A DNA stretch of 64,000 nt from an uncultured Candidatus Saccharibacteria bacterium (GTDB taxonomy: Bacteria > Patescibacteriota > Minisyncoccia > Phycocordibacterales > JAACPR01). The position numbers were made by a program, and so were the translations under genes. The stretch covers positions 66,650 to 130,649 of the forward strand of contig CAZDRR010000001.1 in NCBI GenBank assembly GCA_964507955.1, written 5' to 3'. Below the pieces are notes generated by a model. That model saw only the letters and a list, made by a program, of their open reading frames with translations, had not been told where the DNA came from and ran no database searches. Of this stretch, positions 4,815 through 44,272 are shown piece by piece (within the stretch, counting starts at the first letter, position 1; the number at the start of each line of letters is the position of its first letter).

Positions 4815-4817
4815 AAT

Positions 4818-6227
4818 ATGGCAACAACGAAAATTTCATCAAATGTATTAGCGAGTGGAGCAGCATTAACAAATCTTAATGCTGGGTCATCCATTGCGTT
4901 TACAAAAAGCACATCTGTATCAGGCTCTTTAACGGTTGATACAACGACATTATTTGTCGATAATGTAAATCATAGAGTTGGTATTGGAACAACAGCACCA
5001 ACAGCAACTCTGCATGTTGTTGGAACTGGACTAGTTACTGGTGCATTACAAGTTGGAACCAATGCTGGTGCTAATACGTTTACTCTTAGAGATGCAATCT
5101 TTAGCAAGACAATAGGACAGCCCATGACTTTAAATACTGGGTTGCAAACAGATGGAACAACAGGTGTTGCTGCTGGTTGGACAGTTAGGGATACTACAAA
5201 CGGTATGTGGTCGCCCGCTCTTAGTTCTTTGGCATTCTCTACAGCTTCGGTTGAAAGATTGCGAATAAATTCTGTTGGTAACGTTGGTATTGGAACAATA
5301 ACACCAAATGAAAAGCTTACAGTTGTTGGAAATGTTAGTGCGACAGGGACAGTTACAGGAACGAATCTAGTCTATACCACAACCGATCAAACAGTTGCGG
5401 GCATTAAAACATTTTCAAACAACATTGTTGGGAATGGCACAAATAATACATTACCGAACCAAACAGCGACAACTGACGATGCTATTTTAACTCGTAGTTT
5501 AGAATTAAGCAACTCAATCAACTATGCATGGAGTAATATTGCAATTATTGGCGGTGGTGAATTTCCATCAACCGCATTAATGTCGCAAAATACTTATTAC
5601 ATTGCTGGATCATTAAACTTTTCAGCGGGAGCATTGTCTGGTTATGGTCAATATCTCGCTGTAGTTGATTCTCAAATATATTATCCATTAGGATCTGGCG
5701 CAGCCAATAGATTTGATCAACCATTTACTATTTGTTTTGAATATGATTCAAACTTAGGGACAGGTGTAGGGGTTCCTGTAGATAATTGGTTTATACATGG
5801 ACTAGATTATAATGTATTGAATATTCCTACATTATCAGGATCAAAATGTTTAGCTGTTAAAATTTCTCATACAAATAATACCATCGAGGCTATGATTTGT
5901 GCTGCGGGAGCATCATCAGCCACTTCTGGCGCAATTACATTACCGACAAATTTCATCACAAATCAATCTAAAAGGAAGATATGTATTTCGTGGACAGGAA
6001 CAACAATGAATGTTTATATTTGCTATGCTAATGCATCATCTTTTAACCCAACAACATTTTCTTTAATAGCGTCAGTGACGGCGGCGGGTGCATTGCCCAC
6101 AGCTATGACCCATTATAGGACATATTTTCTTTCATATTTAAATGCAGATTGGCCATATGGATATATTGGCGTAAGCCAAATTGCCGATATAAAATTTATT
6201 AGAAAAGCCGTTTCTCCAATTCTTTAA
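4818..6227 (+). CDS. tail fibre protein (distal part or second fibre)
   Basis: A 469 aa ORF of similar composition to the preceding gene. It shares a near-identical 39-nt segment (encoding GNGTNNTLPNQTATT) with the upstream fibre gene. Confidence 0.5.
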   Translation: MATTKISSNVLASGAALTNLNAGSSIAFTKSTSVSGSLTVDTTTLFVDNVNHRVGIGTTAPTATLHVVGTGLVTGALQVGTNAGANTFTLRDAIFSKTIGQPMTLNTGLQTDGTTGVAAGWTVRDTTNGMWSPALSSLAFSTASVERLRINSVGNVGIGTITPNEKLTVVGNVSATGTVTGTNLVYTTTDQTVAGIKTFSNNIVGNGTNNTLPNQTATTDDAILTRSLELSNSINYAWSNIAIIGGGEFPSTALMSQNTYYIAGSLNFSAGALSGYGQYLAVVDSQIYYPLGSGAANRFDQPFTICFEYDSNLGTGVGVPVDNWFIHGLDYNVLNIPTLSGSKCLAVKISHTNNTIEAMICAAGASSATSGAITLPTNFITNQSKRKICISWTGTTMNVYICYANASSFNPTTFSLIASVTAAGALPTAMTHYRTYFLSYLNADWPYGYIGVSQIADIKFIRKAVSPIL

Positions 6228-6230
6228 TTT

Positions 6231-6614
6231 ATGCAACTATTAACTAAAACACAAACAGAACTCGATATAGAAAATATCGAACACGCAACATCAACATTTG
6301 TAAATTCTTTAAATGCCGCAATCTTTACACTTAATTTGTGTTATGATTCATTATGGAAATTACCAGATGATCGTCTAATAAATGTATTACAAAAATTATA
6401 TGATTTAGGTAAACTACAAGAGTTATTCGAAGATCATTATATTAGTGCTACTGGACTTAATCTTATTCAAGAAAAGGCTGGATATACTGGTCAATCTGCA
6501 TATGCGGTTGCGGGTAGGGAATTTGAAATTGTTGATGGAGTAATTTCGTTGGTATATCCACCAGAACCAGAAATTATTGCGGAGCCAGAAGCATTATTAG
6601 AACAACAAGTGTAA
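6231..6614 (+). CDS. hypothetical protein, possible fibre assembly/chaperone
   Basis: A 127 aa acidic ORF lying between two fibre genes. The assignment is by position only. Confidence 0.25.
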   Translation: MQLLTKTQTELDIENIEHATSTFVNSLNAAIFTLNLCYDSLWKLPDDRLINVLQKLYDLGKLQELFEDHYISATGLNLIQEKAGYTGQSAYAVAGREFEIVDGVISLVYPPEPEIIAEPEALLEQQV

Positions 6615-6627
6615 TTTCTATAGAATT

Positions 6628-8247
6628 ATGGCATCTTCATTCCAATTAACTCAAACTGCGGCAATTATTGATCAAACTTTAGTCACTGGATATAATTTGC
6701 TTATCGCGGGAGGAAATTCTTCCATAGGAACGAGTTCCGCTGCATTAGGAGGTTATGGCAATACTACACAAGGATCGCAAAGCGTTATTGCGGGTGGGGT
6801 GGGCAATATTACTATAGGAGCCACATCTTTTATTGGAGGGGGAGCGGGAAATCAAACCAATGATTCCGCAGAAGTTATTGGAGGAGGAGAAGGTAATAAT
6901 ATTTATGGAGCTTATTCTGTAATTGCGGGCGGATTAAATAATTATATTAGTGGCAATAATGCTTTTGTTGGTGGAGGAGAAAATAATAATTTAACAGATC
7001 CATTATCTATTGGATATTCTATTTTACTTGGAGGATATCAAAATAATTTAACTGGAGGATGTTCCACATTAAATGGAGGGTCATTTAATAATATTAATGG
7101 TAGAAATTCTGTTCTTGTTGGAGGGGGAGGAAATATCGTTAGTGGGACATATAGTTCTTTAATTGGAGGTGCAGGAAATCAAGTTTACGAATCCAGTATT
7201 GTTCTAGGAGGCGGCAGTTATAATTACGCGAGTGGAGACAATAATGTTCTTGTCGGAGGATCAGACAATATTACAAAAGGCACATATAATTTTGTTGGAG
7301 GAGGTAATTTTAATCATAATAGCGGTAGTTATAGCAATATAATTGGTGGACAATATCTTGTTATTACAAATGCTTCGTCAAATTCGTCTATTATTGGAGG
7401 CAAATATAATACTGGCAGTGCTGGTTACGGATTTATTGGAGGGGGTTCTCACAATTTAAATTCTGGCGCATCTTCTGTTATTGTTGGAGGATATAAAAAT
7501 ACCGCAAAGAATTTTGCTTATCAATTTATTGGTGGTGGAGCTAATAATATCGTTAGCGGAAATAATGCTTTTATTGGAGCAGGTAATTTAAATGAAGCTT
7601 CGGGCAGTTATTCTGCGGTTGTAGGTGGAGACCAAAATTTAGCTCATGGCTCTTATGCCTTTATTGGAGGAGGGGCAAGTAACCTTATTACTGGCACAAA
7701 AGGAGCAATTGTCGGTGGAGCATTAAATACCGTTGGCACAAGTTCGATTGTCGCTGGAGGAGAAAGTAATACTGCGGGAAGTTCTTTTAATTCTGTTTTA
7801 GGAGGATATTCCAATACAGCAACGGGAAAATCTTATATTACTATAGGAGGAGGATTTTCTAATGCGGCCACAGGTTCTTATTCAACAATTGTTGGAGGTC
7901 GAGAAAATCTAGCTTTGGCAGATTATTCTTTTGTTGGAGGAGGTTATAAAAATTACGCATCGGGTTCTTATGGAACTATTGTCGGAGGATTCCAATGTCA
8001 AATTCCATCGACAGACGTTGGTGCGGGCGTTTGGGGGGATTCTCAATCAAGAACTCATGTTTCTAAAGGTAGTTATACATTATCTCTGGACTTTGCAAGC
8101 GGAGTTTATATTAGACTTCCTCAATTTACAGGCGCATCCAATCAAGCGGGCAATTTCGGAGAATTAAGGGTTAGTGGTTCTGGATTGTATATTTGCACAG
8201 GCACGGCTGGATCAGGTTGGGGTAGAATTTTCATCTCTTCCTTTTAA
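6628..8247 (+). CDS. fibre/adhesin with Gly-rich beta-roll-like repeats (YadA-head-like)
   Basis: A 539 aa ORF built from many approximately 14-aa repeats of the form SxxIxGGxxNxxxG (e.g. SVIAGGVGNITIGATSFIGGGAGNQ). Confidence 0.5.
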   Translation: MASSFQLTQTAAIIDQTLVTGYNLLIAGGNSSIGTSSAALGGYGNTTQGSQSVIAGGVGNITIGATSFIGGGAGNQTNDSAEVIGGGEGNNIYGAYSVIAGGLNNYISGNNAFVGGGENNNLTDPLSIGYSILLGGYQNNLTGGCSTLNGGSFNNINGRNSVLVGGGGNIVSGTYSSLIGGAGNQVYESSIVLGGGSYNYASGDNNVLVGGSDNITKGTYNFVGGGNFNHNSGSYSNIIGGQYLVITNASSNSSIIGGKYNTGSAGYGFIGGGSHNLNSGASSVIVGGYKNTAKNFAYQFIGGGANNIVSGNNAFIGAGNLNEASGSYSAVVGGDQNLAHGSYAFIGGGASNLITGTKGAIVGGALNTVGTSSIVAGGESNTAGSSFNSVLGGYSNTATGKSYITIGGGFSNAATGSYSTIVGGRENLALADYSFVGGGYKNYASGSYGTIVGGFQCQIPSTDVGAGVWGDSQSRTHVSKGSYTLSLDFASGVYIRLPQFTGASNQAGNFGELRVSGSGLYICTGTAGSGWGRIFISSF

Positions 8248-8255
8248 TATAAGTA

Positions 8256-9338
8256 ATGGGCAATACCGCTAGTTCTGGAAACGCCGATCTTAGTGCGTTT
8301 TACTATCCTAATTTGGGCATTCAAGTTCCAAATGCAATTCCTTTTTATCCTATTGTTACAGGATATGGAGAAGATGCTAGAGTCAAATTCAATCAAGGAT
8401 ACATTATTAATTTCCAAGATATTGATGGTGACGGATTGGCAAAAATTCCCGTGGATAATGTTGGCAAAGAATGGGAGGTTCTTGATAAGAAATTTTTTAT
8501 TAAAATTAAAACAAACGAACAAAGTTCTGCGATTCAAACCGCAGAAATTTTAGATAAAGCGGACGAACAATTTGGGCAAGATTTCCATTATTCAAGTTTA
8601 GTAGAAGAAGCAGACGGAGCTTATACAAAAGCAAAAGGAATTTTCATGGTTCCTTTATGTGAATTTGATGATAAAGGTGGATTGAAACACCTTTATTTAA
8701 GAGATAATATTTTATGGCAAAAAACCAATTATTCTTGCGGAGATGGAAGCGGCTATGGTTTGGTTTATTCTTGGGGAGATTCTCCCGATGTATTCGGTTC
8801 AAATCCGTTGGTAAGATTTCGTAAAATAGCGGCAAGGGAACCGTTACATATAGAAGTTAAAGAGGATGGGAAAACTTTAGAGATTTATTTAGATCCGCAA
8901 ACAGGAACGGGGAGTAGCACGGGATCGTCGCATTCTGGAGAGACAGGGAAAACCGCAATTGTTCCATTTAGAGATGAATTTATTGGATGGGAAAGCATGG
9001 AAGCGCCTGAGCCATGGTTTTTTGATATTGTAGAGGTTGAAATTTTAGGCGCGGAGACAATTGTTGAACTAAGTGCCGAAACAGTAGAATCTTGCGAAGA
9101 AGGGTCGTTACAAGTGATTTCCATTCAAGGAACAGATAGACCAATCAAAGCCACAGCATCTATTAACGGAACAGAATTAAAAATTCGTAGCCATAATTTC
9201 TTTTTTAATCCCAAAAAAGCAACTGTATTTTTATATGGTGTTCGCAAAGGATTTAGTGGTCGCCATAAACGCTATACGCAGGAACAATATTTGGCAAATA
9301 ACGCATTTTATGGAAAAGCCCACGAAAATTGTTTTTAA
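8256..9338 (+). CDS. hypothetical protein (virion-associated?)
   Basis: A 360 aa ORF on the same strand as, and directly after, the fibre genes. Confidence 0.35.
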   Translation: MGNTASSGNADLSAFYYPNLGIQVPNAIPFYPIVTGYGEDARVKFNQGYIINFQDIDGDGLAKIPVDNVGKEWEVLDKKFFIKIKTNEQSSAIQTAEILDKADEQFGQDFHYSSLVEEADGAYTKAKGIFMVPLCEFDDKGGLKHLYLRDNILWQKTNYSCGDGSGYGLVYSWGDSPDVFGSNPLVRFRKIAAREPLHIEVKEDGKTLEIYLDPQTGTGSSTGSSHSGETGKTAIVPFRDEFIGWESMEAPEPWFFDIVEVEILGAETIVELSAETVESCEEGSLQVISIQGTDRPIKATASINGTELKIRSHNFFFNPKKATVFLYGVRKGFSGRHKRYTQEQYLANNAFYGKAHENCF

Positions 9339-10065
9339 TATTTGGACATATAAAAACGATGAGGAAAAAGTTTTTTGGTGCGTGAAATCCATTCAAAAAT
9401 TTTTGTCTCCATATATTGCTGGCATATACATATGGGATGATGGATTGAATCCAATGTCTCTAAAAAATACAGAGAGATTAAGAAAAATTGGTTGTATCGT
9501 TAACCAAACATTCTATAAAAGAAATGGTAATTTAATAGGTCAAGAATGCATTTTGGGCATGATTGAAAATTACATTCAGGCCGTAAGGGAGACAAATGCT
9601 GATTTTTTTGCAAAAATTGATCCTGATGTTTTGGTAATTAGCAAAAATTTATCACAATTTTTGAAAGATTACCCTGCTATTTTTGCGCAAACAAAAGAAG
9701 GATATTTTTATGGTAATCTGTATATAATAAGTAAACAGTCGTTAACTTTTTTGAAAACATTAATAGAGCATCCAGAAAAATTACAAGAAATTCCTAAACA
9801 TAGAAATTTTTCCAAAGATCCAATAGATACTAGGGTTTATTTGGCATACGAAGATTATTTTTTTGGCATTGCCGCAAAAAGAGTATTTAAAGACGCAATT
9901 AAAAAATATTATTTTAGAGAATATTGGGTGCATCCATTTCCTCCATTTTGGGATATGATGAAAGATTTAGCGCAGACAAATTTGGTTTGCAATTTTGGAG
10001 TTTTACATTCGCCTCATGAAGAAACTGCTGAGAAAATGAAGGCGATGTTAAGATACCTTGCGTAA
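9235..10065 (+). CDS. hypothetical protein (start uncertain)
   Basis: An ORF of up to 276 aa. The first ATG overlaps the upstream gene in a different frame, so the true start is probably further downstream. Confidence 0.3.
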   Translation: MVFAKDLVVAINAIRRNNIWQITHFMEKPTKIVFNIWTYKNDEEKVFWCVKSIQKFLSPYIAGIYIWDDGLNPMSLKNTERLRKIGCIVNQTFYKRNGNLIGQECILGMIENYIQAVRETNADFFAKIDPDVLVISKNLSQFLKDYPAIFAQTKEGYFYGNLYIISKQSLTFLKTLIEHPEKLQEIPKHRNFSKDPIDTRVYLAYEDYFFGIAAKRVFKDAIKKYYFREYWVHPFPPFWDMMKDLAQTNLVCNFGVLHSPHEETAEKMKAMLRYLA

Positions 10066-10311
10066 AGTTACAAGGACGGTAAACAAAGAACCTTGTTTGA
10101 TGTATTTGATGGATTCAATAACGTAACCATCAGGTTTTCTATACGAAAATCGAGTCATTGCATCCTCGTAAGAATAAGGGCTTGAAGCGGATAGTCTTAG
10201 AGTTGGGCTTTTAACTGTAAATTTGGCTTTTTCTGGCATTTTTTCCTTGGGAAACGCCATTGGAGCAAATAAACTTGTTAATAAGCAGAGTAAGAGTAAT
10301 TTTGTTTTCAT
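10048..10311 (-). CDS. small secreted protein with signal peptide (lysis-associated?)
   Basis: An 87 aa ORF with a hydrophobic N-terminus (MKTKLLLLCLLTSLFAPMAF). It lies immediately downstream of the endolysin on the same strand. Confidence 0.35.
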   Translation of the reverse strand: MKTKLLLLCLLTSLFAPMAFPKEKMPEKAKFTVKSPTLRLSASSPYSYEDAMTRFSYRKPDGYVIESIKYIKQGSLFTVLVTLRKVS

Positions 10312-10341: not shown

Positions 10342-11097
10342 TCAAGAATTTTCTGCGCAACTGCGAATTAAAGCAGCCTCTTCGTCTCGACGCAACAACA
10401 AACCATTGAGACCCTTGCCAACCCACAATCTTTTCATTTTTTGAATTTCGTCGGCTATGCCTTGATAATCTTTATCAAGAACCAATTGGCGAATAGCTAA
10501 CATTTCTTTTCTTGATTCTCCGATTAAAGATGTGCCACGATTAAAGACTAAGGAAACTAAAGCCCCAAAAGCGTCAGGATGAAGTTTATCTGCTTCGGGA
10601 TAAATGCGAATTACTTCATTTGCCCAACGATTAATAGTGCTATCATTAAAAACTTGAAAAGCAATATTCCAAGGAATATAGATATTTTTAACTTGTGGGA
10701 TTAGGGATTTAGCGGCGATTCCTTTTGCTCCCAAACAATGACTTAATCGTTCAAAATCCTCCGCAGAAAGTTTATCTCCCCAATCTTTTTTAAATTGAGA
10801 AAGGGAGTTATATCCTAAATCGTAACCGATACCAATTGTTACTCCAGAGGCACCAGCAGGCCAAGTAGGTTTTGCAAGCAATTTATTATAATAAGTTTCT
10901 CCCCCTCCGACTTCATATTTCAAAATTAAATCAAGAGCTTTAGGGCTTAAAGAAGTAGTAATAGGTTGAACTATTTCAATATTTAAAGCTTTTATAATTC
11001 CAGACCAAGTATTAAAACCATCATCTCCATCCACTTTTAAACCAAGTTTGGATTGAACAGATTTAATAAATTGAATACGTTCGGGGAAATTACTCAT
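10342..11097 (-). CDS. endolysin: N-terminal peptidoglycan-binding domain plus T4-lysozyme-like (GH24) catalytic domain
   Basis: The N-terminus carries a peptidoglycan-binding-like motif (LGLKVDGDDGFNTWSGI). The catalytic part carries lysozyme-like motifs (YEVGGGETY, GVTIGIGYDLG and ALVSLVFNRG). Confidence 0.6.
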   Translation of the reverse strand: MSNFPERIQFIKSVQSKLGLKVDGDDGFNTWSGIIKALNIEIVQPITTSLSPKALDLILKYEVGGGETYYNKLLAKPTWPAGASGVTIGIGYDLGYNSLSQFKKDWGDKLSAEDFERLSHCLGAKGIAAKSLIPQVKNIYIPWNIAFQVFNDSTINRWANEVIRIYPEADKLHPDAFGALVSLVFNRGTSLIGESRKEMLAIRQLVLDKDYQGIADEIQKMKRLWVGKGLNGLLLRRDEEAALIRSCAENS

Positions 11098-11540
11098 AAT
11101 GTATTTGCGAGAATAAATAAACTATCTATTTGTTTAGAAGTCAAGCCCAATTGCCCTCCTAAAGAAACAATAAGAGGATGATTTCTTTCAAAAACATTTG
11201 CATATTCCCATTCAATTAATGCTCCAGCTTTTGTCGCGGCATCAGGAATATTATCAATAGCGTTAGAAATATTAGTTAAAGAAACCCCACTTTTTAATAA
11301 AGCCAGCCTTAATTGTCTAGGAGTTACCATTTTAGGAACAGATTTAGGCGCGGCAGGAATATCTTTATTTTTTAAAGAGAGACCTTCCTGTGAGGCAACG
11401 GCTTCTTCTGTTTCTCCTGTAATAATAGGGTGATTTGTAGAGACATTAACGCCATTTATGATTTCAAATAAAGCAAAAGAATTGCCTTGGGCGTCGATAT
11501 ATTTTCCAGAATTTATTGGATGTTTTACGAATGTTTTCAT
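11094..11540 (-). CDS. hypothetical protein
   Basis: A 148 aa ORF with start/stop overlaps to the neighbouring genes on the same strand. Confidence 0.35.
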   Translation of the reverse strand: MKTFVKHPINSGKYIDAQGNSFALFEIINGVNVSTNHPIITGETEEAVASQEGLSLKNKDIPAAPKSVPKMVTPRQLRLALLKSGVSLTNISNAIDNIPDAATKAGALIEWEYANVFERNHPLIVSLGGQLGLTSKQIDSLFILANTL

Positions 11541-11541
11541 T

Positions 11542-12171
11542 TTAATTATGAATTACTGTCCAACCTTTAGACACTAAATTATTTACACTGGTTAGATTTG
11601 TTGGGGCGGCATTTGTTCCTCCACTGATATTACAAGTTCCATTATGCACTCCATTTGCATCAAGGACACTTAAAATATGATTAACGGTATTTACAGACAA
11701 AGAATTTGCGCTAATATTTAAAGAATGGATAAGGGAACAACCATTTAATTTTAAATCAGAAAGCAAGTTGTTGTTTAGATTTAATTCTTCTAATTTAGAG
11801 CATTTTTCCAGAGAAATATTTTTTAATAGATTATTATTTGCATAAATAGCTATTAATTTATCCATATAGGAACAATGTATTTCAGATATAGCGTTAAAAT
11901 AGCATACTAAACTGGTTAAATTTGGCAAATCTCCAAGAAATAATTTTCCATCCGCCCCGCTAAATGTAACAGATATAGACGTAATAGCATTAGGGTTTTT
12001 AGGTAGAGCGATAGTATTATAACAATAAAAATTAAAATATAAAGAGTCTAAATAATTCGCTATTCCTCCAATAGCAACTGGTCTCAAACTTTCTAATTGA
12101 TTTACAATATTTTGCTGTAAATTTAAATTAGGATAGTTGCCTAAAGCATAATTTGAACTAAGATTGATCAT
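11542..12171 (-). CDS. leucine-rich-repeat protein, paralogue family member 1
   Basis: LRR-like segments are present (LNLNNNLLSDLKLNGCSLIHSLNISANSLS). The C-terminal module (LSVLDANGVHNGTCNISGGTNAAPT...NLVSKGWTVIHN) is conserved with the two adjacent genes. Confidence 0.5.
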   Translation of the reverse strand: MINLSSNYALGNYPNLNLQQNIVNQLESLRPVAIGGIANYLDSLYFNFYCYNTIALPKNPNAITSISVTFSGADGKLFLGDLPNLTSLVCYFNAISEIHCSYMDKLIAIYANNNLLKNISLEKCSKLEELNLNNNLLSDLKLNGCSLIHSLNISANSLSVNTVNHILSVLDANGVHNGTCNISGGTNAAPTNLTSVNNLVSKGWTVIHN

Positions 12172-12174
12172 AAT

Positions 12175-13071
12175 TTAATTAATAATAACCGTCCAACCTT
12201 TAGCTTGGAGATTATCTTTTGAATTTAATCCATTAATACTAGGCGGGGCATTATCTCCCGCACTTAAATCACAAAAACCATTATGAATTCCACTAGAATC
12301 AAGGACCGCTAAAACTTCATCAATATTTTCTTCTATTAAAGAAGCTCCATTTAAAGCGACATACGACAAAGATGTGCAACCAGTTATTTCAATAAATTGT
12401 AAAGGACAACCAGCGCAATTTAATGTATGTAACACTCCAAATTCATTTAAAGAGAGATAAGCAATATTAGTGCTTTCACAGGAAATACTTTGGCAAGTTT
12501 GAGCAGCACTATTCGAAAACGATATAGAACTAAGAGAATAACTATAAGAGCAAGATAAATACGTTAAAGAATTTAATTTAGATAAATCTAAAGAATATAG
12601 AGAAGAGGAAGAAACGCCAAGGAAAGTTAAATTTGGACAATCAATATTCAATTCATACAGACTATTATTCCCATATAAAGTTAAAGTTGCGAGGTTATCT
12701 CCAGAATAATTAAAAGAAGTTATGTCTGAGCCTTCAACATTTATATCAATTAAAGAAGGACAATTAAAAATATCAATATCTTTTAAAGATAAATCCGCTA
12801 AAGAGATAGATGTTAAAGAAGGCAGATGATAACAAAAAACTTTACCACTTCCAGAAAAAACTCCTTCAATATAAATGGTAGAAAGAGTTTCGGGATTTAA
12901 TGGATAAGCGATAGATCCAGCGATAATTTCAAAATCTTCTGTATTCGAAATTGCAGAGGCGATATCTCCAAAAACCATAGGGCATCTTGGAGCGTTTAAT
13001 AAATTTTGAATTCTGCTTCTTTCAGAATTTGTTAATGTGACATAGACAGGCGTATCTCCAATATCTTTCAT
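12175..13071 (-). CDS. leucine-rich-repeat protein, paralogue family member 2
   Basis: A 298 aa ORF with LRR-like repeats. Its C-terminal module (LAVLDSSGIHNGFCDLSAGDNAPPS...LQAKGWTVIIN) is the same one carried by the 11542..12171 gene. Confidence 0.5.
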   Translation of the reverse strand: MKDIGDTPVYVTLTNSERSRIQNLLNAPRCPMVFGDIASAISNTEDFEIIAGSIAYPLNPETLSTIYIEGVFSGSGKVFCYHLPSLTSISLADLSLKDIDIFNCPSLIDINVEGSDITSFNYSGDNLATLTLYGNNSLYELNIDCPNLTFLGVSSSSLYSLDLSKLNSLTYLSCSYSYSLSSISFSNSAAQTCQSISCESTNIAYLSLNEFGVLHTLNCAGCPLQFIEITGCTSLSYVALNGASLIEENIDEVLAVLDSSGIHNGFCDLSAGDNAPPSINGLNSKDNLQAKGWTVIIN

Positions 13072-13075
13072 TAAA

Positions 13076-13699
13076 TTAATTAGTAAAAATTGTCCAAGAC
13101 TTTTGGATAAGATTATTCATAGCAGTTATCGCTTCGGCAGAAAATGGAGCAGCATTTAAACCTCCACTTAATATACAATATCCTTCTGTGAGGCCATTTG
13201 CGTCCAGTTCTATTAAAATATTATCTATGGAGGTCAAATTATTATAAGCCAGATCCAACGACCGAACACTTTGTAAAGATTACACAAGAATAATATCGGT
13301 TAATCCGCAATTATTTGCTGCGAAAGAAGATAAATGGATTAAATTATTGATCTCCAAATATTCCAAAGGATTACCGTTTAAATTTAAATTCATTACATTT
13401 GGACAATTTTTTATTTTGATTTTAGTTAGAAGATTCAATGGAAGCATGACATCTCCTAAATATGGCAAATCTTCTAAAAAAATTTCTCCAGATAATCCTA
13501 ATTCTTCATATATAAAAGAATTAAAAAATTTATTCTTTGGAAAAGCAATGTCTCCTGCCAAAAATACCTCATTTAAGACAGAGGATATTTGGCCATAAGC
13601 AATCGGTCTAGGGAACAAATTAAAATTCTTTTTAATTTGTTCTTTTTGGAAATCGGATGCGGAAGTTCCAATAGGATTATTACCAAAATCAAGTGACAT
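13076..13699 (-). pseudogene. leucine-rich-repeat paralogue 3, split into two ORFs (13280..13699 and 13076..13258)
   Basis: The upstream ORF carries the LRR part. The downstream 60-aa ORF carries the conserved C-terminal module (LIELDANGLTEGYCILSGGLNAAPF...LIQKSWTIFTN). The two are separated by about 20 nt that contains a stop or frame break. Confidence 0.4.
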
Positions 13700-14058
13700 T
13701 GCTAAAATTGTTACACAAGAAAATCAAATTTTGTGTAAATAAGAAAGTGAGTTATCGCTTATTACAACAAGATATCCATTCTAATTTTTCGACAAATTCA
13801 GGTGTATGGTCGAATTATTATGATCAAATTTTTGCTTTATATACAGGAGCTTCTTCCATGCAGGATTTAAGCGATCATTTGATGAGAGAGTTTAATCGCA
13901 AAGTTGAAATATTGGGATTTACTAATTTAATGTTTGCCCCTTATGATGCTGGATATAGATTCATTAGCGGCTTTTATTCTGGTCCAGTAGTTAATTCGAA
14001 TGGCTTGTTCTATAATGGAGAACAATTAATGTTCAACGGTGAAGAAATTGTAATTTGA
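13693..14058 (+). CDS. hypothetical protein
   Basis: A 121 aa ORF. Confidence 0.25.
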   Translation: MTLLKLLHKKIKFCVNKKVSYRLLQQDIHSNFSTNSGVWSNYYDQIFALYTGASSMQDLSDHLMREFNRKVEILGFTNLMFAPYDAGYRFISGFYSGPVVNSNGLFYNGEQLMFNGEEIVI

Positions 14059-14094: not shown

Positions 14095-14171
14095 TGGTTG
14101 GACTAGCGGGGATCGAACCCGCATATTCTGATTCACAGTCAGAGATTTTGATCCATTTAAACTATAGTCCA
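14095..14171 (-). tRNA. tRNA-His (anticodon GTG), CCA encoded
   Basis: Acceptor TGGACTA/TAGTCCA; T-arm GCGGG-TTCGATC-CCCGC; anticodon stem TCTGA/TCAGA; loop CTGTGAA. Confidence 0.55.
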
Positions 14172-14177
14172 CATTGG

Positions 14178-14600
14178 TTAATATTGAACATATACAGCGG
14201 CCTTCTTAACTTCATAAGAATCGCCCATTCCAAGAGTGTTGATGGCGGCTTGCATTTTACCAGCATCCTTGATCGCAGGAAGATGCCCTTCCATATGAGA
14301 AATAAATTGTTGGTTATAATAGCGCATATCTTCGCGCAGCCATTTTAACTGATAATTCATTTCGGAATATACAGAAGAAATCATCGCGGATACATCGCAC
14401 ATTTTGCAACAGTCTTTACAGCAACAGTCGCTTTCTTCTTTGTCTCCTTCATTTGGAGCCATCATATCGGCCTTTGATTCATAGGAGATAATGGTTTCAT
14501 TATCTTTATTTTCCAAAGTTGCAACAAGCCCAAAATTAGCGGCGTCTTTGATTGCGGCTTCGGCAATTTCTGAATTTAGAATTTTAAATGATTGTTTCAT
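14178..14600 (-). CDS. hypothetical Cys-rich protein
   Basis: This is the ORF starting MKQSFKILNSEIAE and it contains a CCCKDCCKMC cluster. The longer reading to 14654 would overlap a tRNA, so the internal start is preferred. Confidence 0.3.
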   Translation of the reverse strand: MKQSFKILNSEIAEAAIKDAANFGLVATLENKDNETIISYESKADMMAPNEGDKEESDCCCKDCCKMCDVSAMISSVYSEMNYQLKWLREDMRYYNQQFISHMEGHLPAIKDAGKMQAAINTLGMGDSYEVKKAAVYVQY

Positions 14601-14628
14601 AGTAGAGCTTACACGTAAAAAGGGAAAT

Positions 14629-14702
14629 TGGTAGCCCCACGGTGGATCGAACACCGAACTACAGATTCAAAATCTGTTGTTTTTCCATTTAAACTACAGG
14701 GC
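14629..14702 (-). tRNA. tRNA, probably Gln (anticodon TTG)
   Basis: T-arm CGGTG-TTCGATC-CACCG; anticodon stem ACAGA/TCTGT with loop TTTTGAA. The acceptor stem needs G-U pairs. Confidence 0.4.
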
Positions 14703-14708
14703 AGTTTT

Positions 14709-14792
14709 TGGTGCGGGCAGGGGGATTTGAACCCCCGTGTGGTATTCCTGCTTGGAAGACAGGCGCAATCGACCAGACTATGCGATACCCGC
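14709..14792 (-). tRNA. tRNA (possibly Gly-TCC; long variable region)
   Basis: Acceptor GCGGGTA/TGCCCGC; T-arm GGGGG-TTCAAAT-CCCCC; CCA is encoded. Confidence 0.45.
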
Positions 14793-14986
14793 GTAACTTA
14801 TTCTAAATATTTTTCACTCTTCGTCAAGAATATTTTTCACAACATCCTTCTTTTTCAATCCACAACCATATCGAATACGGTTGAGAATTTTTCCAGAGCA
14901 ATTCGTCATACAAACAGATTCGTCTTTCAAGATACGACGAATTTGGCGATTTGTCCGATTGTGTTCTGATTTTTTAGACATAAGAT

Positions 14987-15502
14987 TTAAATAGAAAAGT
15001 ATTGACGAACTTGATCTAAAGAAATAAAAATTGAATTGTATTTGGGATAAATCACATCAACGCAACAATTTAAATATCTTTGATCGACTTTCTTCCAAGG
15101 TCCCCAACCTTTGTGGATAATATGGTTATGGGTATGTCCATGAACATTGTTTTTCCCTCGTAATTCGTCTGGATGAATCGGGCAATGAGTTAACCACATA
15201 CCCTTGTATTTCAACATTCCATGAACTTCTTCGAAAACCTCCATTTGATCTTTCGTGGAAACAAAATCACAATGATTGCCTTTAATAAGGATTTTACGTC
15301 CCTTTAAGTTGCCAAGGATATCCAATCCCTCTTTGGAAAAGGCCGCGTCTCCTAAACAATAAACAAGATCATTTTTACTAATTCTTCTATTCCAATCTTC
15401 TTGAATTAAGATTGTGTTTTCTTCGCTATTACCTACAAAATGTCTAAATTTACCGATATTTCGATGATCAAGATGTAAATCGCTGCAAATATATACGCTC
15501 AT
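14987..15502 (-). CDS. calcineurin-like metallophosphoesterase (Ser/Thr phosphatase family)
   Basis: The motifs D-x-H (SDLHLDH), GDxxD (LGDAAF), GNH (KGNHC) and HGH are present. Confidence 0.65.
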   Translation of the reverse strand: MSVYICSDLHLDHRNIGKFRHFVGNSEENTILIQEDWNRRISKNDLVYCLGDAAFSKEGLDILGNLKGRKILIKGNHCDFVSTKDQMEVFEEVHGMLKYKGMWLTHCPIHPDELRGKNNVHGHTHNHIIHKGWGPWKKVDQRYLNCCVDVIYPKYNSIFISLDQVRQYFSI

Positions 15503-16125
15503 AATTTTTTATAAAATTTTCCTTTTTTGTCAAGACACTGGTAAAATAGGTCCATCAGATCCATATCTATACCCCGAAAGGATTCCAGAGTCAAGAGTTT
15601 TGTAGGCATTTCTTTCAGTAAATAAGGATGGTAGATTGTTGTGCTGTCATACCATTTATTTTGGAGGAAGGTGAACTGATAATAGAACAAATATAGATTT
15701 GCGTTTTTCGCGTAAATTTCATTATCAAACAAGCCCCATCTTTTGGAATATTTTAAAGCCCGAGATTCACAATCTCTTTCCAAAGCAATAACATCCATTA
15801 CAGAATCAAAGTTTGAGCAATTTAATTTTTTTTGCTCCAAAAGATCCCAATAGATAAAATCGTCTTTCCATAACAAAGAATTTTCAACTGCTTGATTCAT
15901 ATGGGAGAATTCATGAACGAAAACTTGTTGAAATAAAGGATTTTTAGTTGCCACAACAATTTCTTCTCCGTCGCACCATCCAGAGCATTTTCCGCTCGGA
16001 TGACTGATATTACGGGTATTAACTAAAATAATTTTTTTATTATTTTTAGCAATATAGTTTTCGCTCCATTGAAAAAAATTTTGAAAATTTAAAGATTGTT
16101 GGGATAGGAAGCTATTTTTGTTCAC
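15499..16125 (-). CDS. hypothetical protein with HExxH motif (possible metallopeptidase)
   Basis: A 208 aa ORF containing VHEFSHM. Confidence 0.3.
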   Translation of the reverse strand: MNKNSFLSQQSLNFQNFFQWSENYIAKNNKKIILVNTRNISHPSGKCSGWCDGEEIVVATKNPLFQQVFVHEFSHMNQAVENSLLWKDDFIYWDLLEQKKLNCSNFDSVMDVIALERDCESRALKYSKRWGLFDNEIYAKNANLYLFYYQFTFLQNKWYDSTTIYHPYLLKEMPTKLLTLESFRGIDMDLMDLFYQCLDKKGKFYKKL

Positions 16126-16158
16126 ATTATATAATAATTGAAATTAGCAATTTTTCAA

Positions 16159-16234
16159 TGGTGGGAATTAAGGGAATCGAACCCTTATCTTGTCTTTAGG
16201 AAAGACTTATTCTAATCCATTATACTAAATTCCC
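16159..16234 (-). tRNA. tRNA (isotype not resolved)
   Basis: T-arm AAGGG-TTCGATT-CCCTT; acceptor GGGAATT/AATTCCC; CCA is followed by ATTTT. Confidence 0.45.
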
Positions 16235-16441
16235 ATACAAGTCAAGAAAAATGGAGGAAAACTAGGGTCCTGATCCCTATGAGTATTGTTCATACCCACC
16301 ACTTACTTTCCAAGTAAGGGCCAACACTTGCTGGCTTAGTTTTCCATTGGAGGATGATTGAACAGTCCAAGTCCATGCCTTTCAGCACACATCGTTTTCG
16401 AAACGAGTTTCCCAGCTTGGGAATTAATCATCCATTTAAAA

Positions 16442-16532
16442 TTGGAGGATCGTAATAGAATCGAACTATTATCCTAGTATTACTAGCATAGCCGAGGGTT
16501 CAAATCTCGTTTGCGGCCATTGCGCTACGATC
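16442..16532 (-). tRNA. type II tRNA (possibly Ser-TGA)
   Basis: Acceptor GGATCGT/ACGATCC; T-arm AATAG-TTCGATT-CTATT; long variable-arm hairpin CTAGTAATACTAG. Confidence 0.35.
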
Positions 16533-16538
16533 CATTTA

Positions 16539-16730
16539 TTATTCAAAAATTACTTCGTCATCATCGCCATCATTAGCAATAACGGAGGCTTTGCTTTTCT
16601 TTTCATCCCATTTGCTATAACAAACTGCTGCGCGTTGTTTATTATCGGGGAACTCTTTTGACAAATCCGCCATACAAGAACTCATAAATTCCTTTTTGGA
16701 CTGCTTTTTGGAAGGTGATTTAATAGGCAT
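16539..16730 (-). CDS. small hypothetical protein
   Basis: A 63 aa ORF lying between tRNAs. Confidence 0.2.
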   Translation of the reverse strand: MPIKSPSKKQSKKEFMSSCMADLSKEFPDNKQRAAVCYSKWDEKKSKASVIANDGDDDEVIFE

Positions 16731-16747
16731 ATTACTGTTTACACTTT

Positions 16748-16824
16748 AATAAAGAAATGGTCCTCGCAGTAGGATTCAAACCCACACAATCGCCCTTATA
16801 AAGAACGCGCTTTGTTCATCTCAG
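16748..16824 (-). tRNA. tRNA (anticodon loop TTTATAA; possibly Ile-TAT)
   Basis: Acceptor CCTCGTA/TGCGAGG; T-arm GTGGG-TTTGAAT-CCTAC; CCA encoded. Confidence 0.45.
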
Positions 16825-16829
16825 CCATA

Positions 16830-16914
16830 CGAGGAAAATTGGTAACTAAGGTGGGATTTGAACCCACAGAGGATAAATGATTTTAAGTCATTCGGTTGTC
16901 GCCATTTCCCTTAT
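16830..16914 (-). tRNA. type II tRNA, probably Leu (anticodon TAA)
   Basis: Acceptor GACTAAG/CTTAGTT; anticodon stem AATGA/TCATT with loop CTTAAAA; T-arm GTGGG-TTCAAAT-CCCAC; total length 85 nt. Confidence 0.45.
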
Positions 16915-16929
16915 CCACTTAGTCATTTT

Positions 16930-17148
16930 TTAAAATTCTATTTTCTTTGGTTTTCTAGTAATAGAGAGTTCAATTTCGAATTCATCTTGAAATTCATTTT
17001 CTCTTAAAAGAGGCCCATTGCGATGAACTTCTCCGTCGATAATAATCGTAATGTGATGACCAGACTTTGATTTACACGAAAAAGAATATTGCTCTGTTGG
17101 AGACAGTTGCATTCTATTATGAGTGCCAGAAATTAAGATCGCTTGCAT
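16930..17148 (-). CDS. small hypothetical protein
   Basis: A 72 aa ORF preceded on the - strand by TTGACT-N16-TAGATT. Confidence 0.3.
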   Translation of the reverse strand: MQAILISGTHNRMQLSPTEQYSFSCKSKSGHHITIIIDGEVHRNGPLLRENEFQDEFEIELSITRKPKKIEF

Positions 17149-17190
17149 TAGGCAAATCTAAGAGTTTTTCTGTAAAAGTCAAGAGAAAAA

Positions 17191-17269
17191 TGGTAGCCCG
17201 TGAGGAGGTCGAATCCCCAACCACAACTTTTTGAGAGTTGCCGCACTGCCACATTTAGCGTAACGGGCC
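17191..17269 (-). tRNA. tRNA (isotype not resolved)
   Basis: Acceptor GGCCCGT/ACGGGCT; anticodon stem CAACT/AGTTG; CCA encoded. Confidence 0.45.
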
Positions 17270-17278
17270 ATTGAAAAT

Positions 17279-17363
17279 TGGTGGGAAAGGTGGGATTCGA
17301 ACCCACAGAGGGTAAAAGATTCTAAATCTTTCGCTTGTCGCCAATTTCACTTATCCACTTTCC
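17279..17363 (-). tRNA. type II tRNA (possibly Leu-TAG)
   Basis: Acceptor GGGAAAG/CTTTCCC; T-arm GTGGG-TTCGAAT-CCCAC; anticodon stem AAAGA/TCTTT; length 85 nt. Confidence 0.45.
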
Positions 17364-17369
17364 CAAAAA

Positions 17370-17449
17370 TGGTGACTCTGATAGGAATCGAACCTACACT
17401 ATTAACTCTCTCAAAGTTATGCCTCTGCCTTGTGTTGGGCTACAGAGTC
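17370..17449 (-). tRNA. tRNA (isotype not resolved)
   Basis: Perfect acceptor GACTCTG/CAGAGTC; T-arm GTAGG-TTCGATT-CCTAT; anticodon stem TAACT/AGTTA. Confidence 0.45.
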
Positions 17450-18025
17450 TTTTTTTAAATTACAATCTGCGCAAAATATTTTCTTGCCATTCCAGTAAGG
17501 GCATACGGTTGGGTCCGTGCAATCAATAGCATATCCCATAATACCCTTTGACATTCCATCATTACTTTGGATTCGTATTTTGCGGAATCTCATTTTCTTG
17601 CCTTGAATAGTTTCATCGAAAGTTTCCGCTTCTCCAGACGCCCAAACAGATAAATCATGTTTGCGAAATAAATCTGCCGTTGCCTTGTCCCAACCGACTT
17701 CAAGATCAGTTTTACCTATATAGTCTTTTCTGTCAAGTCCATATGTTGAACAATAAGCTTCATTAACTTCCATCATTCGGAATTCAACTTCTCCGTCTGA
17801 TCTTACTTGGGCAACTTTGATCCACGCAGGTCTGTCAAAGGAATTTATAACACTAAAAAGCATTCCATTCAATCTTTGCACAGATATATTTGTATGTTGT
17901 TTTATTTCATTGATTTTATTGTCAAATCGCCCTTTAAGCTTAAAATAGGTAAAAAGTAATGCGGACAACTGCCCCCCGATTGAAACGACCAACTCCGTGA
18001 TTTGTCCACTATCCATAATGGACAT
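17417..18025 (-). CDS. membrane-anchored protein with PAS-like domain
   Basis: An N-terminal hydrophobic helix (ITELVVSIGGQLSALLFTYF) is followed by a PAS-like segment (MMEVNEAYCSTYGLDRKDYIGKTDLEV). The 3' end overlaps the predicted tRNA at 17370..17449. Confidence 0.3.
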   Translation of the reverse strand: MSIMDSGQITELVVSIGGQLSALLFTYFKLKGRFDNKINEIKQHTNISVQRLNGMLFSVINSFDRPAWIKVAQVRSDGEVEFRMMEVNEAYCSTYGLDRKDYIGKTDLEVGWDKATADLFRKHDLSVWASGEAETFDETIQGKKMRFRKIRIQSNDGMSKGIMGYAIDCTDPTVCPYWNGKKIFCADCNLKKDSVAQHKAEA

Positions 18026-18147
18026 TATTACACAAAAAAACTAACGGAAATCATTAGGTTTTTTAAAAAAATGGAGGCTATATAGAGAATCCAACTCTAA
18101 TTTCATCATTACGAAAGATGTATAATCGCATTATATCATATAGCCAT

Positions 18148-18222
18148 TGGTAGGGGATCAGGGAGTCGAACCCTGTGGTGGCAGTTTGTAGGACTGCTGC
18201 CCAACCGTAGAGCATATCCCCC
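18148..18222 (-). tRNA. tRNA (possibly Val-TAC)
   Basis: T-arm CAGGG-TTCGACT-CCCTG; acceptor GGGGGAT/ATCCCCT; anticodon stem GCAGT/ACTGC. Confidence 0.4.
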
Positions 18223-18230
18223 ATTAAAAT

Positions 18231-18305
18231 TGGACGCGCCGACACGAATCGAACGTGCGTAATGCTCTTTTGCAGAGAGTTGAGTAGCCATTCCCCCACA
18301 GCGCG
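18231..18305 (-). tRNA. tRNA (possibly Cys-GCA)
   Basis: Acceptor CGCGCTG/CGGCGCG; T-arm CACG-TTCGATT-CGTG. Confidence 0.4.
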
Positions 18306-18313
18306 ATAAAAAT

Positions 18314-18392
18314 TGGCCCGCGTAGGTCGGAATCGAACCGACTATTTAACTCGTTTTGGAGGCGAGTTGCAACCGCCACTTGCTGCTACGGG
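18314..18392 (-). tRNA. tRNA, probably Trp (CCA) with an unusual anticodon loop
   Basis: D-arm GCAA-GTGGCGG-TTGC; T-arm GTCGG-TTCGATT-CCGAC. The anticodon stem ACTCG/CGAGT encloses a 9-nt loop, CCTCCAAAA. Confidence 0.35.
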
Positions 18393-18640
18393 ATGAAAAA
18401 TTTAAAAGAGTGGAGTCCGTAACTTTTTCTTGGCAGAATGAGGTTTAGACAGTGACTCCGCATGGGCTACTTTGGTCGTTTCGGTTCCACCCGAATTAAG
18501 ATTTCTCAACTTGTTACTGGACACCAACGCGCCTTTCCATGACTGGCTTACAAACTTCGCCGCTTTCGCTCTCTTTTAAAATTGGTGGAGAATATGCAAA
18601 ACACTTTATTAAAATTTTGTTTTGCAGTGTAAAGATTATT

Positions 18641-19138
18641 ATGAACCTTAAAGAACAAATTCGACAATATAAATTAGAAAATCCCGATAAAGGTTATGCC
18701 TCTATTGCAAAACATTTTAATTTAAAATCTCATAATTCTGTTAGATATCATTTAGACGATGCTGTTAAAATTAATATATTAAAATCGTCTAAACAATCTA
18801 GGCAGCGTAATGTATTAAAATTAAAAATCAAACAAAGTATTAAAGAGTCTAAAAAACAGGGAGTTATATCCGATTCATTTAATGATTTATTTAAATATTT
18901 TTCTACCCAAGAACCTATTTGTAATTTATCTGGTGTAAAATTTAATATCAATGATTCTTCTGCTTATGAATTAGATCATAAAATTCCTTATTCTCGCGGA
19001 GGAACCAATCAAAAAGAAAATTTGCAATTTACTATTAAATCTGTTAATCGCGCAAAACATTCTTTATTAGAAGAAGAATTTGTGTCTTTATGTAACGCAG
19101 TATCTAAATTTATGGGAAATGGACACAACGAGAATTGA
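18641..19138 (+). CDS. HNH homing endonuclease (start taken at the internal Met; the ORF extends to 18539)
   Basis: HNH motif YELDHKIPYSRGGTNQKENLQFTIKSVNRAKH. This is a + strand gene embedded in the - strand tRNA array. Confidence 0.55.
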   Translation: MNLKEQIRQYKLENPDKGYASIAKHFNLKSHNSVRYHLDDAVKINILKSSKQSRQRNVLKLKIKQSIKESKKQGVISDSFNDLFKYFSTQEPICNLSGVKFNINDSSAYELDHKIPYSRGGTNQKENLQFTIKSVNRAKHSLLEEEFVSLCNAVSKFMGNGHNEN

Positions 19139-19535
19139 ACTCGCCACACCGACATTGCAAGTGTCAGTCGCCCCCAAGGAACATGTGCGCCCATATATTG
19201 CCGTGAGAACCCTAAGCCTGATCTCTCGCATCATAATCAGCAATCAGGCGTGTTACTGATCTCTTGTGCTTTACGGCGAAATTGGCGGTCCATAGGGGGA
19301 ACGATCCCCTTCCTCAAGATTGACAATCTAGTGATGCTTCCTTTACACTAATGGACCTTAAAATTTATTAAAATTGGTAATTGGTTATGCCCTTTGACCG
19401 AGGGGGTGTGTTCTTATCTTACAGAACGACGTTGGATATGCTACCTATTCGTTCGGGCGGCTCCTTAAATTTACTTTGTCGATCCGATGCATATTAGATC
19501 GACTTTTCAACGATAAGACCAACTCTAACCAAAAC

Positions 19536-19610
19536 TGGTAGGCAGTGGGGGAATTGAACCCGCCGTCTCTTGATTCGTATTCAAGTATTCTTCCGTTATA
19601 CTAACCGCCC
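19536..19610 (-). tRNA. tRNA-Arg (anticodon ACG)
   Basis: D-stem GTAT/ATAC; anticodon stem CTTGA/TCAAG with loop ATACGAA; CCA encoded. Confidence 0.5.
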
Positions 19611-19623
19611 ATTGAAAATTGTT

Positions 19624-19698
19624 TGGAGGCACGATGGAGAGTCGAACTCCAGTATCACCCATACCAAGGGTGTATAATAACCGTTATATGATCGAGCC
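19624..19698 (-). tRNA. tRNA-Thr (anticodon GGT)
   Basis: Anticodon stem CACCC/GGGTG with loop TTGGTAT; T-arm TGGAG-TTCGACT-CTCCA. Confidence 0.45.
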
Positions 19699-19701
19699 AT
19701 T

Positions 19702-19773
19702 TGGTCGGATACTTGAGAATCGAACTCAACTGATCTTGCTCCCAAAGCAAGCGCATCGCCAGTCTGCCTGTAT
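19702..19773 (-). tRNA. tRNA-Pro (anticodon TGG)
   Basis: Acceptor CGGATAC/GTATCCG; anticodon stem CTTGC/GCAAG with loop TTTGGGA. Confidence 0.45.
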
Positions 19774-19779
19774 CCGTTA

Positions 19780-19858
19780 AATTGGTGCGAGTAGTGAGAT
19801 TCGAACTCACGATCATTCTTCGTTGGCAACGAAGTGCAATGGACCACTATGCGACACT
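19780..19858 (-). tRNA. tRNA-Gly (anticodon GCC)
   Basis: Acceptor GCGAGTG/TACTCGC; anticodon stem CTTCG/CGAAG with loop TTGCCAA; T-arm GTGAG-TTCGAAT-CTCAC; CCA encoded. Confidence 0.55.
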
Positions 19859-20243
19859 CGCAAAAAACTCTCCGAATTACGCATTGTAAAGAGGCGCGGA
19901 GAGTATGAAAATTGTTTCTATGCCTTGAGATTACAGGCTAGGGCGATCAACCATTCACAAGATTATTAGAAGACATTCCAAGCCCCCACTTCCTTGCTTA
20001 TCCACTACCTCTCGATAGTTGTCAATCAATGACGCTGTTTTATATACCGTTAGCTATTACGGTTTACCGCTTGCCATACTCAACCTTCGTTAATTCTTCG
20101 GGGTATGCCTACCGCGAATAAATTCCCTTAGATTAAACGCCTTGTGCCTTGCGGGCCAAGGTTCGCACAGAATTATCTTTCGATTTCTGTATTAGTCACC
20201 TTTCTGGCTTTCGGGGTCGCAACTTTTGCTTTTTATATATTAT

Positions 20244-23075: not shown

Positions 23076-23222
23076 AAAATTTTCTGTTGAGAGTGTGAGT
23101 TCCACTCTGTTATGGCTATTTAGTCACCGTCACGATTCATCATCGTCGCTTGCATCGTTCTCAGCTACAACAGAAAATAAAAATTGGTTGCAGAAGTTAG
23201 ATTCGAACTAACGATTTTCACC

Positions 23223-44242: not shown

Positions 44243-44272
44243 ACCGATACTTTAATTGGTTTTGTGATTATG

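Follow-up and report, generated by a model that had tools for sequence, protein, structure and literature searches.

Three tandem leucine-rich-repeat genes

Three adjacent genes for leucine-rich-repeat (LRR) proteins lie on the minus strand at positions 11542–13699 of a 64-kb stretch of phage DNA from contig CAZDRR010000001.1, the whole of which is called the window here. In the direction of transcription, paralogue 3 (LRR3; 13076–13699) comes first, followed by paralogue 2 (LRR2; 12175–13071, 298 amino acids (aa)) and paralogue 1 (LRR1; 11542–12171, 209 aa), and then by the genes for a 148-aa protein (11094–11540) and a lysozyme-like endolysin (10342–11097). LRR1 and LRR2 are intact; LRR3 comprises 207 codons in a single frame, with a TAA at codon 140. 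We regard this anatomy as virtually certain. The four minus-strand open reading frames (ORFs) listed for the three genes in the initial annotation, which we followed up here, lie exactly where it had placed them, and LRR1 is documented by its ORF call, alignments, an AlphaFold2 model, Foldseek matches and a profile hidden Markov model (HMM) of its C-terminal module.

The description of the region as a tandem LRR family holds for all copies. The Pfam model LRR_4 scores 27.8 bits against LRR2 (cut-off 27) and 21.6 bits, below the cut-off, against LRR1, with no match for the 139-aa ORF that opens LRR3; apart from weak LRR models, no Pfam family matched the LRR proteins. A motif scan found 8–12 matches to the LRR pattern per copy, some of them overlapping, and cysteines recur in the repeats in a way that is reminiscent of the internalin InlJ. 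The LRR regions also match phrog_7816 (E = 8e-10 for LRR2), which PHROGs lists as of unknown function. An AlphaFold2 model of the 209-aa LRR1, for which an alignment of 14 sequences was used, has a mean predicted local distance difference test (pLDDT) score of 77.6, exceeding 90 from residue 100, and displays a solenoid with regularly spaced short strands. Compared with the PDB by Foldseek, it matches LRR domains only (IpaH, SspH, SDS22, internalins and GPIb-alpha; probability 1.0, E = 3.6e-3 or worse). Profile matches and solenoid fold together place these proteins in the LRR superfamily.

As judged from their alignment, the three genes are full-length paralogues that differ mainly in the number of LRRs. 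In BLASTP comparisons, LRR1 and LRR2 match with E = 2e-16 in their C-terminal and 3e-6 in their N-terminal parts, LRR1 and the read-through translation of LRR3 with E = 2e-22, colinear over 184 residues that span the stop, and LRR2 and LRR3 with E = 1e-13 and 3e-11. The N-terminal ~95 residues (~11887–12171 in LRR1) are also common to all copies, with 20 invariant alignment columns, which identifies the three as paralogous over their full length; LRR2 differs mainly by an insertion of ~86 alignment columns, corresponding to roughly four extra LRRs. Since pairwise identity is only 30–38%, the duplications appear to be old. The suggestion that the family is diversifying in an active sense fits neither these values nor the window, in which no long DNA repeats or template/variable repeat pairs were found, no reverse transcriptase search having been made. 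The repeats that are present are imperfect, 26–45 nt long, and match conserved peptide motifs only; diversification of the diversity-generating retroelement type was rejected for want of a template/variable pair. A profile scan showed the family to have no fourth member in the window, and a profile of the N-terminal region had no match there beyond these genes either; in one word-indexed database search, this profile recovered only the protein of this phage and no homologue outside it.

All three proteins end in the same module of ~60 aa (~11545–11730 in LRR1, ~12178–12369 in LRR2), with the consensus ‘LDANG...GGTNAAP...KGWTVxTN’, invariant L, L, G, N, P and L columns and near-invariant L, G, A and W columns; each copy carries every invariant column. 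This shared C-terminal module had been proposed in the initial annotation and survives proper alignment, the pairwise E values given above being well outside what chance would produce. The proposal that it acts as a constant anchoring domain fares less well: the LRR1 model (pLDDT ~98 in this part) makes it the end of the solenoid, with helix 160–173, strand 179–181, helix 193–201 and strand 205–207, and the module is generic, occurring in thousands of unrelated proteins. Going by the predicted secondary-structure string, the module can be read as the final, helix-bearing part of the solenoid. The N-terminal common region would be the better candidate for a docking element.

The interrupted third copy

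The third copy had been described as split into two ORFs by a break at about 13259–13279, attributable to a frameshift, a pseudogene or programmed frameshifting. The two pieces, of 139 aa (13280–13699) and 60 aa (13076–13258, with a TTG start), are real ORF calls, but no change of frame separates them. Their start codons lie 441 nt apart (13699 − 13258, or 3 × 147), 13259–13279 consists of seven in-frame sense codons, and 13076–13699 translated in one frame yields 139 codons, one TAA and 67 open codons that end in the module. Frameshifting, programmed or otherwise, was rejected because both pieces occupy the same frame with one TAA between them and without an overlapping slippery site. This TAA (13282–13280, in the context TAA-T) is the sole lesion of LRR3, and reading through it would give a product of 207 residues, as against 209 for LRR1.

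The open stretch past the stop (13079–13279), which includes the 60-aa TTG ORF, keeps all invariant family columns of the module and scores 93 bits with the module HMM, the best of the three copies (87 bits for LRR1, 88 bits for LRR2). With 67 codons open and the best-scoring module downstream, the lesion looks recent, and its simplest reading is a recent single-base nonsense substitution; LRR3 is probably a young pseudogene. In LRR proteins, the terminal rungs are usually needed for stability. A stop at codon 140 would remove the last rungs together with the terminal unit and most likely leave an unstable 139-aa fragment without function, a loss that may be tolerated as two intact copies remain.

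The intact downstream codons and well-preserved module could also signify that the TAA is overcome through read-through or a suppressor tRNA whose gene lies beyond the window, or that translation restarts at the TTG at 13258, with a full-length or two-piece protein as the product, which would make the interruption a regulatory one; the phage carries many tRNA genes, and the 64-kb window is part of a ~139-kb contig. We nevertheless consider a bypass improbable. TAA is the main terminator of the window, ending 26 of the 41 ORFs of at least 150 aa (TAG, nearly unused, ends one), and TAA-T is the commonest stop context. In E. coli, no termination signal is more efficient than TAA-T. The 22 tRNAs of the window include no suppressor, no other gene in it is split by an internal TAA (the same-frame pairs found are ordinary adjacent genes or antisense noise), and the TTG is preceded neither by a Shine–Dalgarno-like sequence nor by any other recognizable signal. 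Recoding of TAA was rejected on the strength of its use as main terminator and the lack, within the window, of other split genes and of a suppressor tRNA.

A single-base lesion in an otherwise perfect ORF might also have arisen as an error of sequencing or assembly, or represent a minor allele, which would leave three functional paralogues. A sequencing error had been envisaged for the break in the initial annotation, too, but three Logan assemblies (SRR10083249, SRR10083250 and SRR10083298) are 100% identical to the window, TAA included, even if these runs have neighbouring accessions and may share a sample, study or population, so that a population polymorphism at the TAA is conceivable and would speak against a fixed nonsense mutation. 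The presence of the TAA in three independently assembled contigs makes a one-off assembly error unlikely, and the lesion, a substitution and not a homopolymer indel, is not of a typical error type. An artefact or minor allele is, on these grounds, very improbable.

It also counts against the nonsense substitution that the searches turned up no orthologue of this phage in which the ancestral codon could be seen. Among 50,697 phage records, neither megablast nor tblastn found a match to the region or to the 298-aa protein, the read-through LRR3 translation (with Q at the stop) had no relatives in the JGI metagenomes, and the endolysin had no match in IMG/VR. The rIIA protein (rIIA/rIIB lie at 43217–46443) is only ~28% identical to those of cultured phages, so that no orthologous phage is available for reading the ancestral codon. 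Look-ups of encoding contigs, aimed at extending the genome past the window, gave only short Logan contigs.

Genomic context at the locus and among relatives

A hairpin resembling an intrinsic terminator, with a run of eight T residues (14089–14070, minus strand), lies directly after tRNA-His and divides the tRNA array from the LRR-to-endolysin block; a terminator scan found no such site on the minus strand between 13699 and 10342. Spacers within the block are 4, 3 and 1 nt, the gene for the 148-aa protein starting 1 nt past the LRR1 stop and itself overlapping the endolysin start in an ATGA. Terminator and tight gene spacing together suggest that the LRR genes share a transcript with the endolysin gene (its product matches Pfam Phage_lysozyme with E = 2.9e-7 and 31.3 bits, the cut-off being 22.3), and the block probably forms one transcription unit, which would probably be expressed late. 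All three LRR genes end in AAT TAA, followed after 1–4 nt by ATG; LRR2 runs on into LRR1 (12171–12177) without a change of frame, with nothing but TAA, 3 nt and ATG at the junction, an arrangement that recurs between the tail-fibre genes for 848-aa and 469-aa, and for 469-aa and 127-aa, proteins on the plus strand (2268–6614). In a genome without Shine–Dalgarno sites, such junctions suggest translational coupling. The LRR block adjoins, and converges on, the tail-fibre genes at 2268–9338.

The 148-aa protein matches phrog_6034 (E = 2e-24), a family annotated ‘unknown function’. Eight phages with a homologue were inspected (loci including L006–L010 and L054). In five of them (phiM9, Flavobacterium phage filifjonk9-1, Curvibacter P26059A, Mesorhizobium Lo5R7ANS and Pseudomonas HHBS14_1), the gene immediately upstream of the homologue is annotated as tail, tail-fibre or structural; in P2-like Acica, the homologue stands where P2 has gpG, directly ahead of the tail sheath gene; the remaining two are uninformative or merely place it inside the tail region. 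On the basis of position, the family may comprise unrecognized tail-fibre-associated proteins, and the 148-aa protein may be a candidate chaperone. Phages that carry phrog_6034 are very diverse, comprising T7-like phages, Pootjesviridae, Flavobacterium siphophages and P2-like phages. The model of the 148-aa protein has a C-terminal five-helix bundle (pLDDT ~96). Its vague likeness to five-helix bundles of the helix–turn–helix type (E > 0.1) was rejected as an assignment, as was membership of the Tfa proteins, to known examples of which it has no sequence or fold similarity; a 150-aa gene downstream of one homologue (P0004) proved unrelated.

A profile of the module, built from 13 sequences and run with hmmsearch against 1.84 billion cluster representatives, matched 5,765 proteins at E ≤ 1e-3 and 1,621 at E ≤ 1e-10, with the intact window copies at E ~2e-20 to 5e-20 (P0001, 2e-20; P0002, 4.6e-20). 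No Pfam or NCBIfam model covers the module, and against PDB sequences the profile gave chance matches only (E ≥ 0.24); the C-terminal end of phrog_34853 (function unknown in PHROGs) covers it in four viral members. Many matches have the module at the extreme C-terminus, and some contain 2–7 copies, an 838-aa protein with three modules being one example. Among metagenomic proteins, P0036, P0043 and P0025 carry 3–7 copies each, and two combine collagen-like Gly-X-Y N-termini with seven tandem modules and no ordinary LRRs between them, which implies that the module can form a repeat array alone. The window copies resemble the family in their invariant columns and in having the module end the protein, whereas most relatives are much longer (287–3,000 aa) and carry PKD, collagen-like, ConA-like or tail-protein domains, or other ~22-residue repeats with a CSSLTSFP motif; compared with these, the window proteins are minimal forms whose N-terminus is private to them.

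In IMG/VR, 26 loci carry the module, which ends the protein in 24 of them. Twelve of these loci and two cultured cyanophages were examined, and in 10 of the resulting 14 (L014, L020, L025, L026, L027, L031, L033, L036, S-CBWM1 and S-SKS1) the module gene is near (within two genes of), inside the region of, or fused with genes for tail, tail-fibre or virion structural proteins. Tail-fibre or tail-protein genes lie directly upstream in L020, L026 and L031; the module protein of L026 has an N-terminal tail-protein domain, and that of L014 is fused to a virion structural domain. L027, L033 and L036 have tail-fibre or structural neighbours, with an endolysin three ORFs upstream in L036 as well. The protein encoded two genes upstream in L025 (a 167-aa ORF lies between) is 51% identical over 200 aa to the 848-aa tail-fibre-like protein of the window. 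Synechococcus phage S-CBWM1 gp93, situated between tail-fibre genes, is annotated ‘putative tail protein’, and the S-SKS1 member falls within the head–tail structural block. On examination, L016, L017, L022 and L028 displayed no link to tail or structural genes.

Ten of the 11 closest cellular module loci come from Bacteroidota (metagenome-assembled genomes, MAGs). Here the module lies within large proteins with signal peptides and sorting domains of the type IX secretion system (T9SS), and it also ends proteins of 351–418 aa; the chromosomal neighbourhoods include T9SS substrates. The groundwater Bacteroidetes MAG JACRAL01 has a cellular multi-copy family, with four loci (L040, L042, L043 and L044) that each encode a 351–418-aa protein ending in the module; in L040 and L042, a 134–145-aa ORF precedes the module gene and T9SS-sorted proteins adjoin. 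In the window, a Shine–Dalgarno core is found upstream of 2 of the 41 long ORFs, against a background of 9%. Weak Shine–Dalgarno usage is typical of Bacteroidota. Together, the scarce Shine–Dalgarno sites and the bias of the module relatives suggest that the phage host is probably a member of the Bacteroidota.

With Bacteroidota surface proteins as closest cellular relatives and one copy already broken, the LRR genes might be no more than decaying passengers from such a host, fragments of T9SS surface LRR proteins without a dedicated role in the phage. This is hard to reconcile with the retention of three copies that, at 30–38% identity, have kept their N- and C-terminal regions conserved and their frames intact, with an N-terminal region for which the search described above detected no cellular homologue, and with the tight packing, at a spacing that suggests translational coupling, alongside essential lysis genes; we regard an origin as mere passengers as improbable.

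Several further features of the window were noted. An 87-aa protein (10048–10311, minus strand), encoded ~30 nt past the endolysin gene and with an apparent N-terminal signal peptide, as judged by eye, could be spanin-like or secreted; the 3′ end of its gene is overlapped on the opposite strand by the end of a 276-aa ORF (9235–10065, plus strand) with a weak galactosyltransferase match. A homing endonuclease gene (1194–1862, plus strand; phrog_655, E = 6e-62, with NUMOD3) lies a few hundred bases upstream of the tail-fibre block. The 395-nt gap between LRR3 and the tRNA-His terminator holds an opposite-strand ORF of 121 aa with a GTG start (13693–14058, plus strand), of which a 66-aa version (13858–14058) was called in a Logan contig; it matches none of the known families and could be either noise or a divergent gene of small size. 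The tRNA genes comprise 21 on the minus strand, set among protein ORFs (14095–23260), and tRNA-Leu(taa) at 59551–59635 on the plus strand. ARAGORN gives unusual lengths for tRNA-Asn(gtt) (91 nt, 21820–21910) and tRNA-Gly(tcc) (84 nt, 14709–14792), which could reflect introns, long variable arms or mis-calls.

A possible role in host binding

Host-surface recognition or virion association, both raised in the initial annotation, is the role that the genomic context supports best. We infer that the locus encodes virion-borne, host-binding LRR proteins, one paralogue of which has recently been inactivated by a nonsense substitution, and we hold the chances of this composite reading to be evenly balanced; the virion or binding role, taken separately, is plausible but falls a little short of even. 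A role in the virion or at the surface is suggested because the module closes the protein in nearly all IMG/VR loci (24 of 26) and most of the examined phage loci lie near tail or structural genes (10 of 14), because some family members have collagen-like or tail-protein N-termini, because the Bacteroidota members are secreted, with signal peptide and T9SS signals, and because phrog_6034 homologues directly follow tail, tail-fibre or structural genes. The three old tandem duplicates, each consisting of the N-terminal ~95 aa, a variable number of LRRs and the 60-aa helix–strand–helix–strand end unit, would be made late and attach to the virion, plausibly via the common N-terminal region. Their differing LRR surfaces would bind structures on the surface of a probably Bacteroidota host, and the 148-aa protein may help in assembly.

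A number of points weigh against this picture. Both virion incorporation and binding are deduced from context. The LRR genes and the main tail-fibre block are on different strands, the LRR products are short for fibres (209–298 aa), and the N-terminal region matches no known tail-attachment domain, residues 1–50 of LRR1 being of low confidence in the AlphaFold2 model. No match between the LRR proteins and Pfam or PHROG tail families was found. Against the PDB, the 148-aa protein has no fold match, known fibre chaperones included (E > 0.1 only); it could serve the opposite-strand tail fibres instead, and module proteins elsewhere have no phrog_6034 neighbour.

The LRR proteins have no predicted signal peptide or membrane segment, which would also suit intracellular effectors for host takeover or anti-defence that bind, for example, defence sensors or the proteolysis machinery, in principle analogous to LRR-containing bacterial effectors. 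LRRs are generic protein-binding scaffolds, the best PDB matches are the LRR domains of IpaH/SspH effectors and SDS22, the genes adjoin the tRNA array instead of lying inside the main tail block, and gain and loss of paralogues is typical of arms-race genes. Yet the proteins have no catalytic domain, and matches to the NCBIfam XopL and SlrP models are far below their cut-offs and cover LRRs only. The LRR genes are set apart from the tRNA array by a terminator and share a compact block with the endolysin gene; their relatives in other phages are mostly found in tail or virion modules, and their cellular relatives are secreted surface proteins. A function inside the host cell is, on this evidence, rather unlikely, though the most serious of the other possibilities considered.

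The bacterial LRR adhesins and effectors that are the top Foldseek matches in the PDB (internalins including InlJ, IpaH, SspH/SlrP and SDS22) share with the window proteins the solenoid of ~21–22-residue repeats of the form LxxLxLxxN/C. Weak LRR matches are also seen in NCBIfam and Pfam, every NCBIfam score falling far short of its family cut-off. In contrast to them, the window proteins have no signal peptide, LPXTG motif, GW anchor or NEL E3-ligase domain, both the N-terminal region and the C-terminal unit are different, and the fold matches do not go beyond the E value stated above. Assignment to the IpaH/SspH/SlrP or XopL type of effector was rejected: the LRRs are the only part that aligns, XopL scores 19.8 bits against a cut-off of 500, and proteins of 209–298 aa leave no room for an added effector domain.

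Among phages, the closest parallel in logic is found in Goslar (Chimalliviridae), in which several DUF7941 paralogues combine a common N-terminal module with varied C-terminal binding domains, including LRR or beta-helix domains, and for which a role in host recognition has been proposed by the authors (bioRxiv 10.64898/2026.04.21.720040). DUF7941 is reported to be exclusive to chimalliviruses (bioRxiv 10.64898/2026.04.21.720040), and the window family, although it likewise has several paralogues per phage, has no sequence relationship to it. The order of genes, with a binding protein, a small conserved protein and then lysis genes, is that of P2 H/G, Mu S/U and lambda stf/tfa, and relatives of the 148-aa protein are encoded at the gpG position in P2-like Acica and after the fibre gene in T7-like and other phages; the LRR proteins nonetheless lack fibre hallmarks, and the relationship to these systems is one of position only. 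Little literature was found on phage LRR tail proteins, on the three SRA runs and on S-CBWM1, and a match in the CASP16 literature concerned LRRK2 and was irrelevant.

A broader and more doubtful conjecture is that the LRR solenoid with its ‘LDANG/GGTNAAP/KGWTV’ end unit constitutes a widespread, unrecognized class of phage receptor-binding or adhesin domains, common to T9SS surface proteins of Bacteroidota and to phage tail proteins. This phage would then possess a three-member repertoire with a private N-terminal adaptor and phrog_6034 helpers, and the broken copy would reflect ongoing turnover.

LRR proteins as such are familiar, and examples from phages have been recorded previously, as the proposal for Goslar illustrates. 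New here are the grouping of three compactly arranged copies that have a private N-terminus, the connection with a large uncurated module family that occurs both in surface proteins of Bacteroidota and in tail-region proteins of phages, the association by position with phrog_6034, and the corrected description of the lesion in LRR3. That copy ought to be annotated as a single gene, a pseudogene interrupted by an internal stop, and not as two genes or a frameshift. The locus is thus a moderately interesting variant of a known fold, and current understanding is not overturned. It draws attention to a 60-aa module with thousands of members for which Pfam and NCBIfam have no model, and provides positional evidence that phrog_6034 may be a tail-fibre-associated family. 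If they are virion-borne, the proteins would be compact, experimentally tractable representatives of LRR-fold host recognition in phages, which has so far been proposed from structure predictions only, for example in Goslar.

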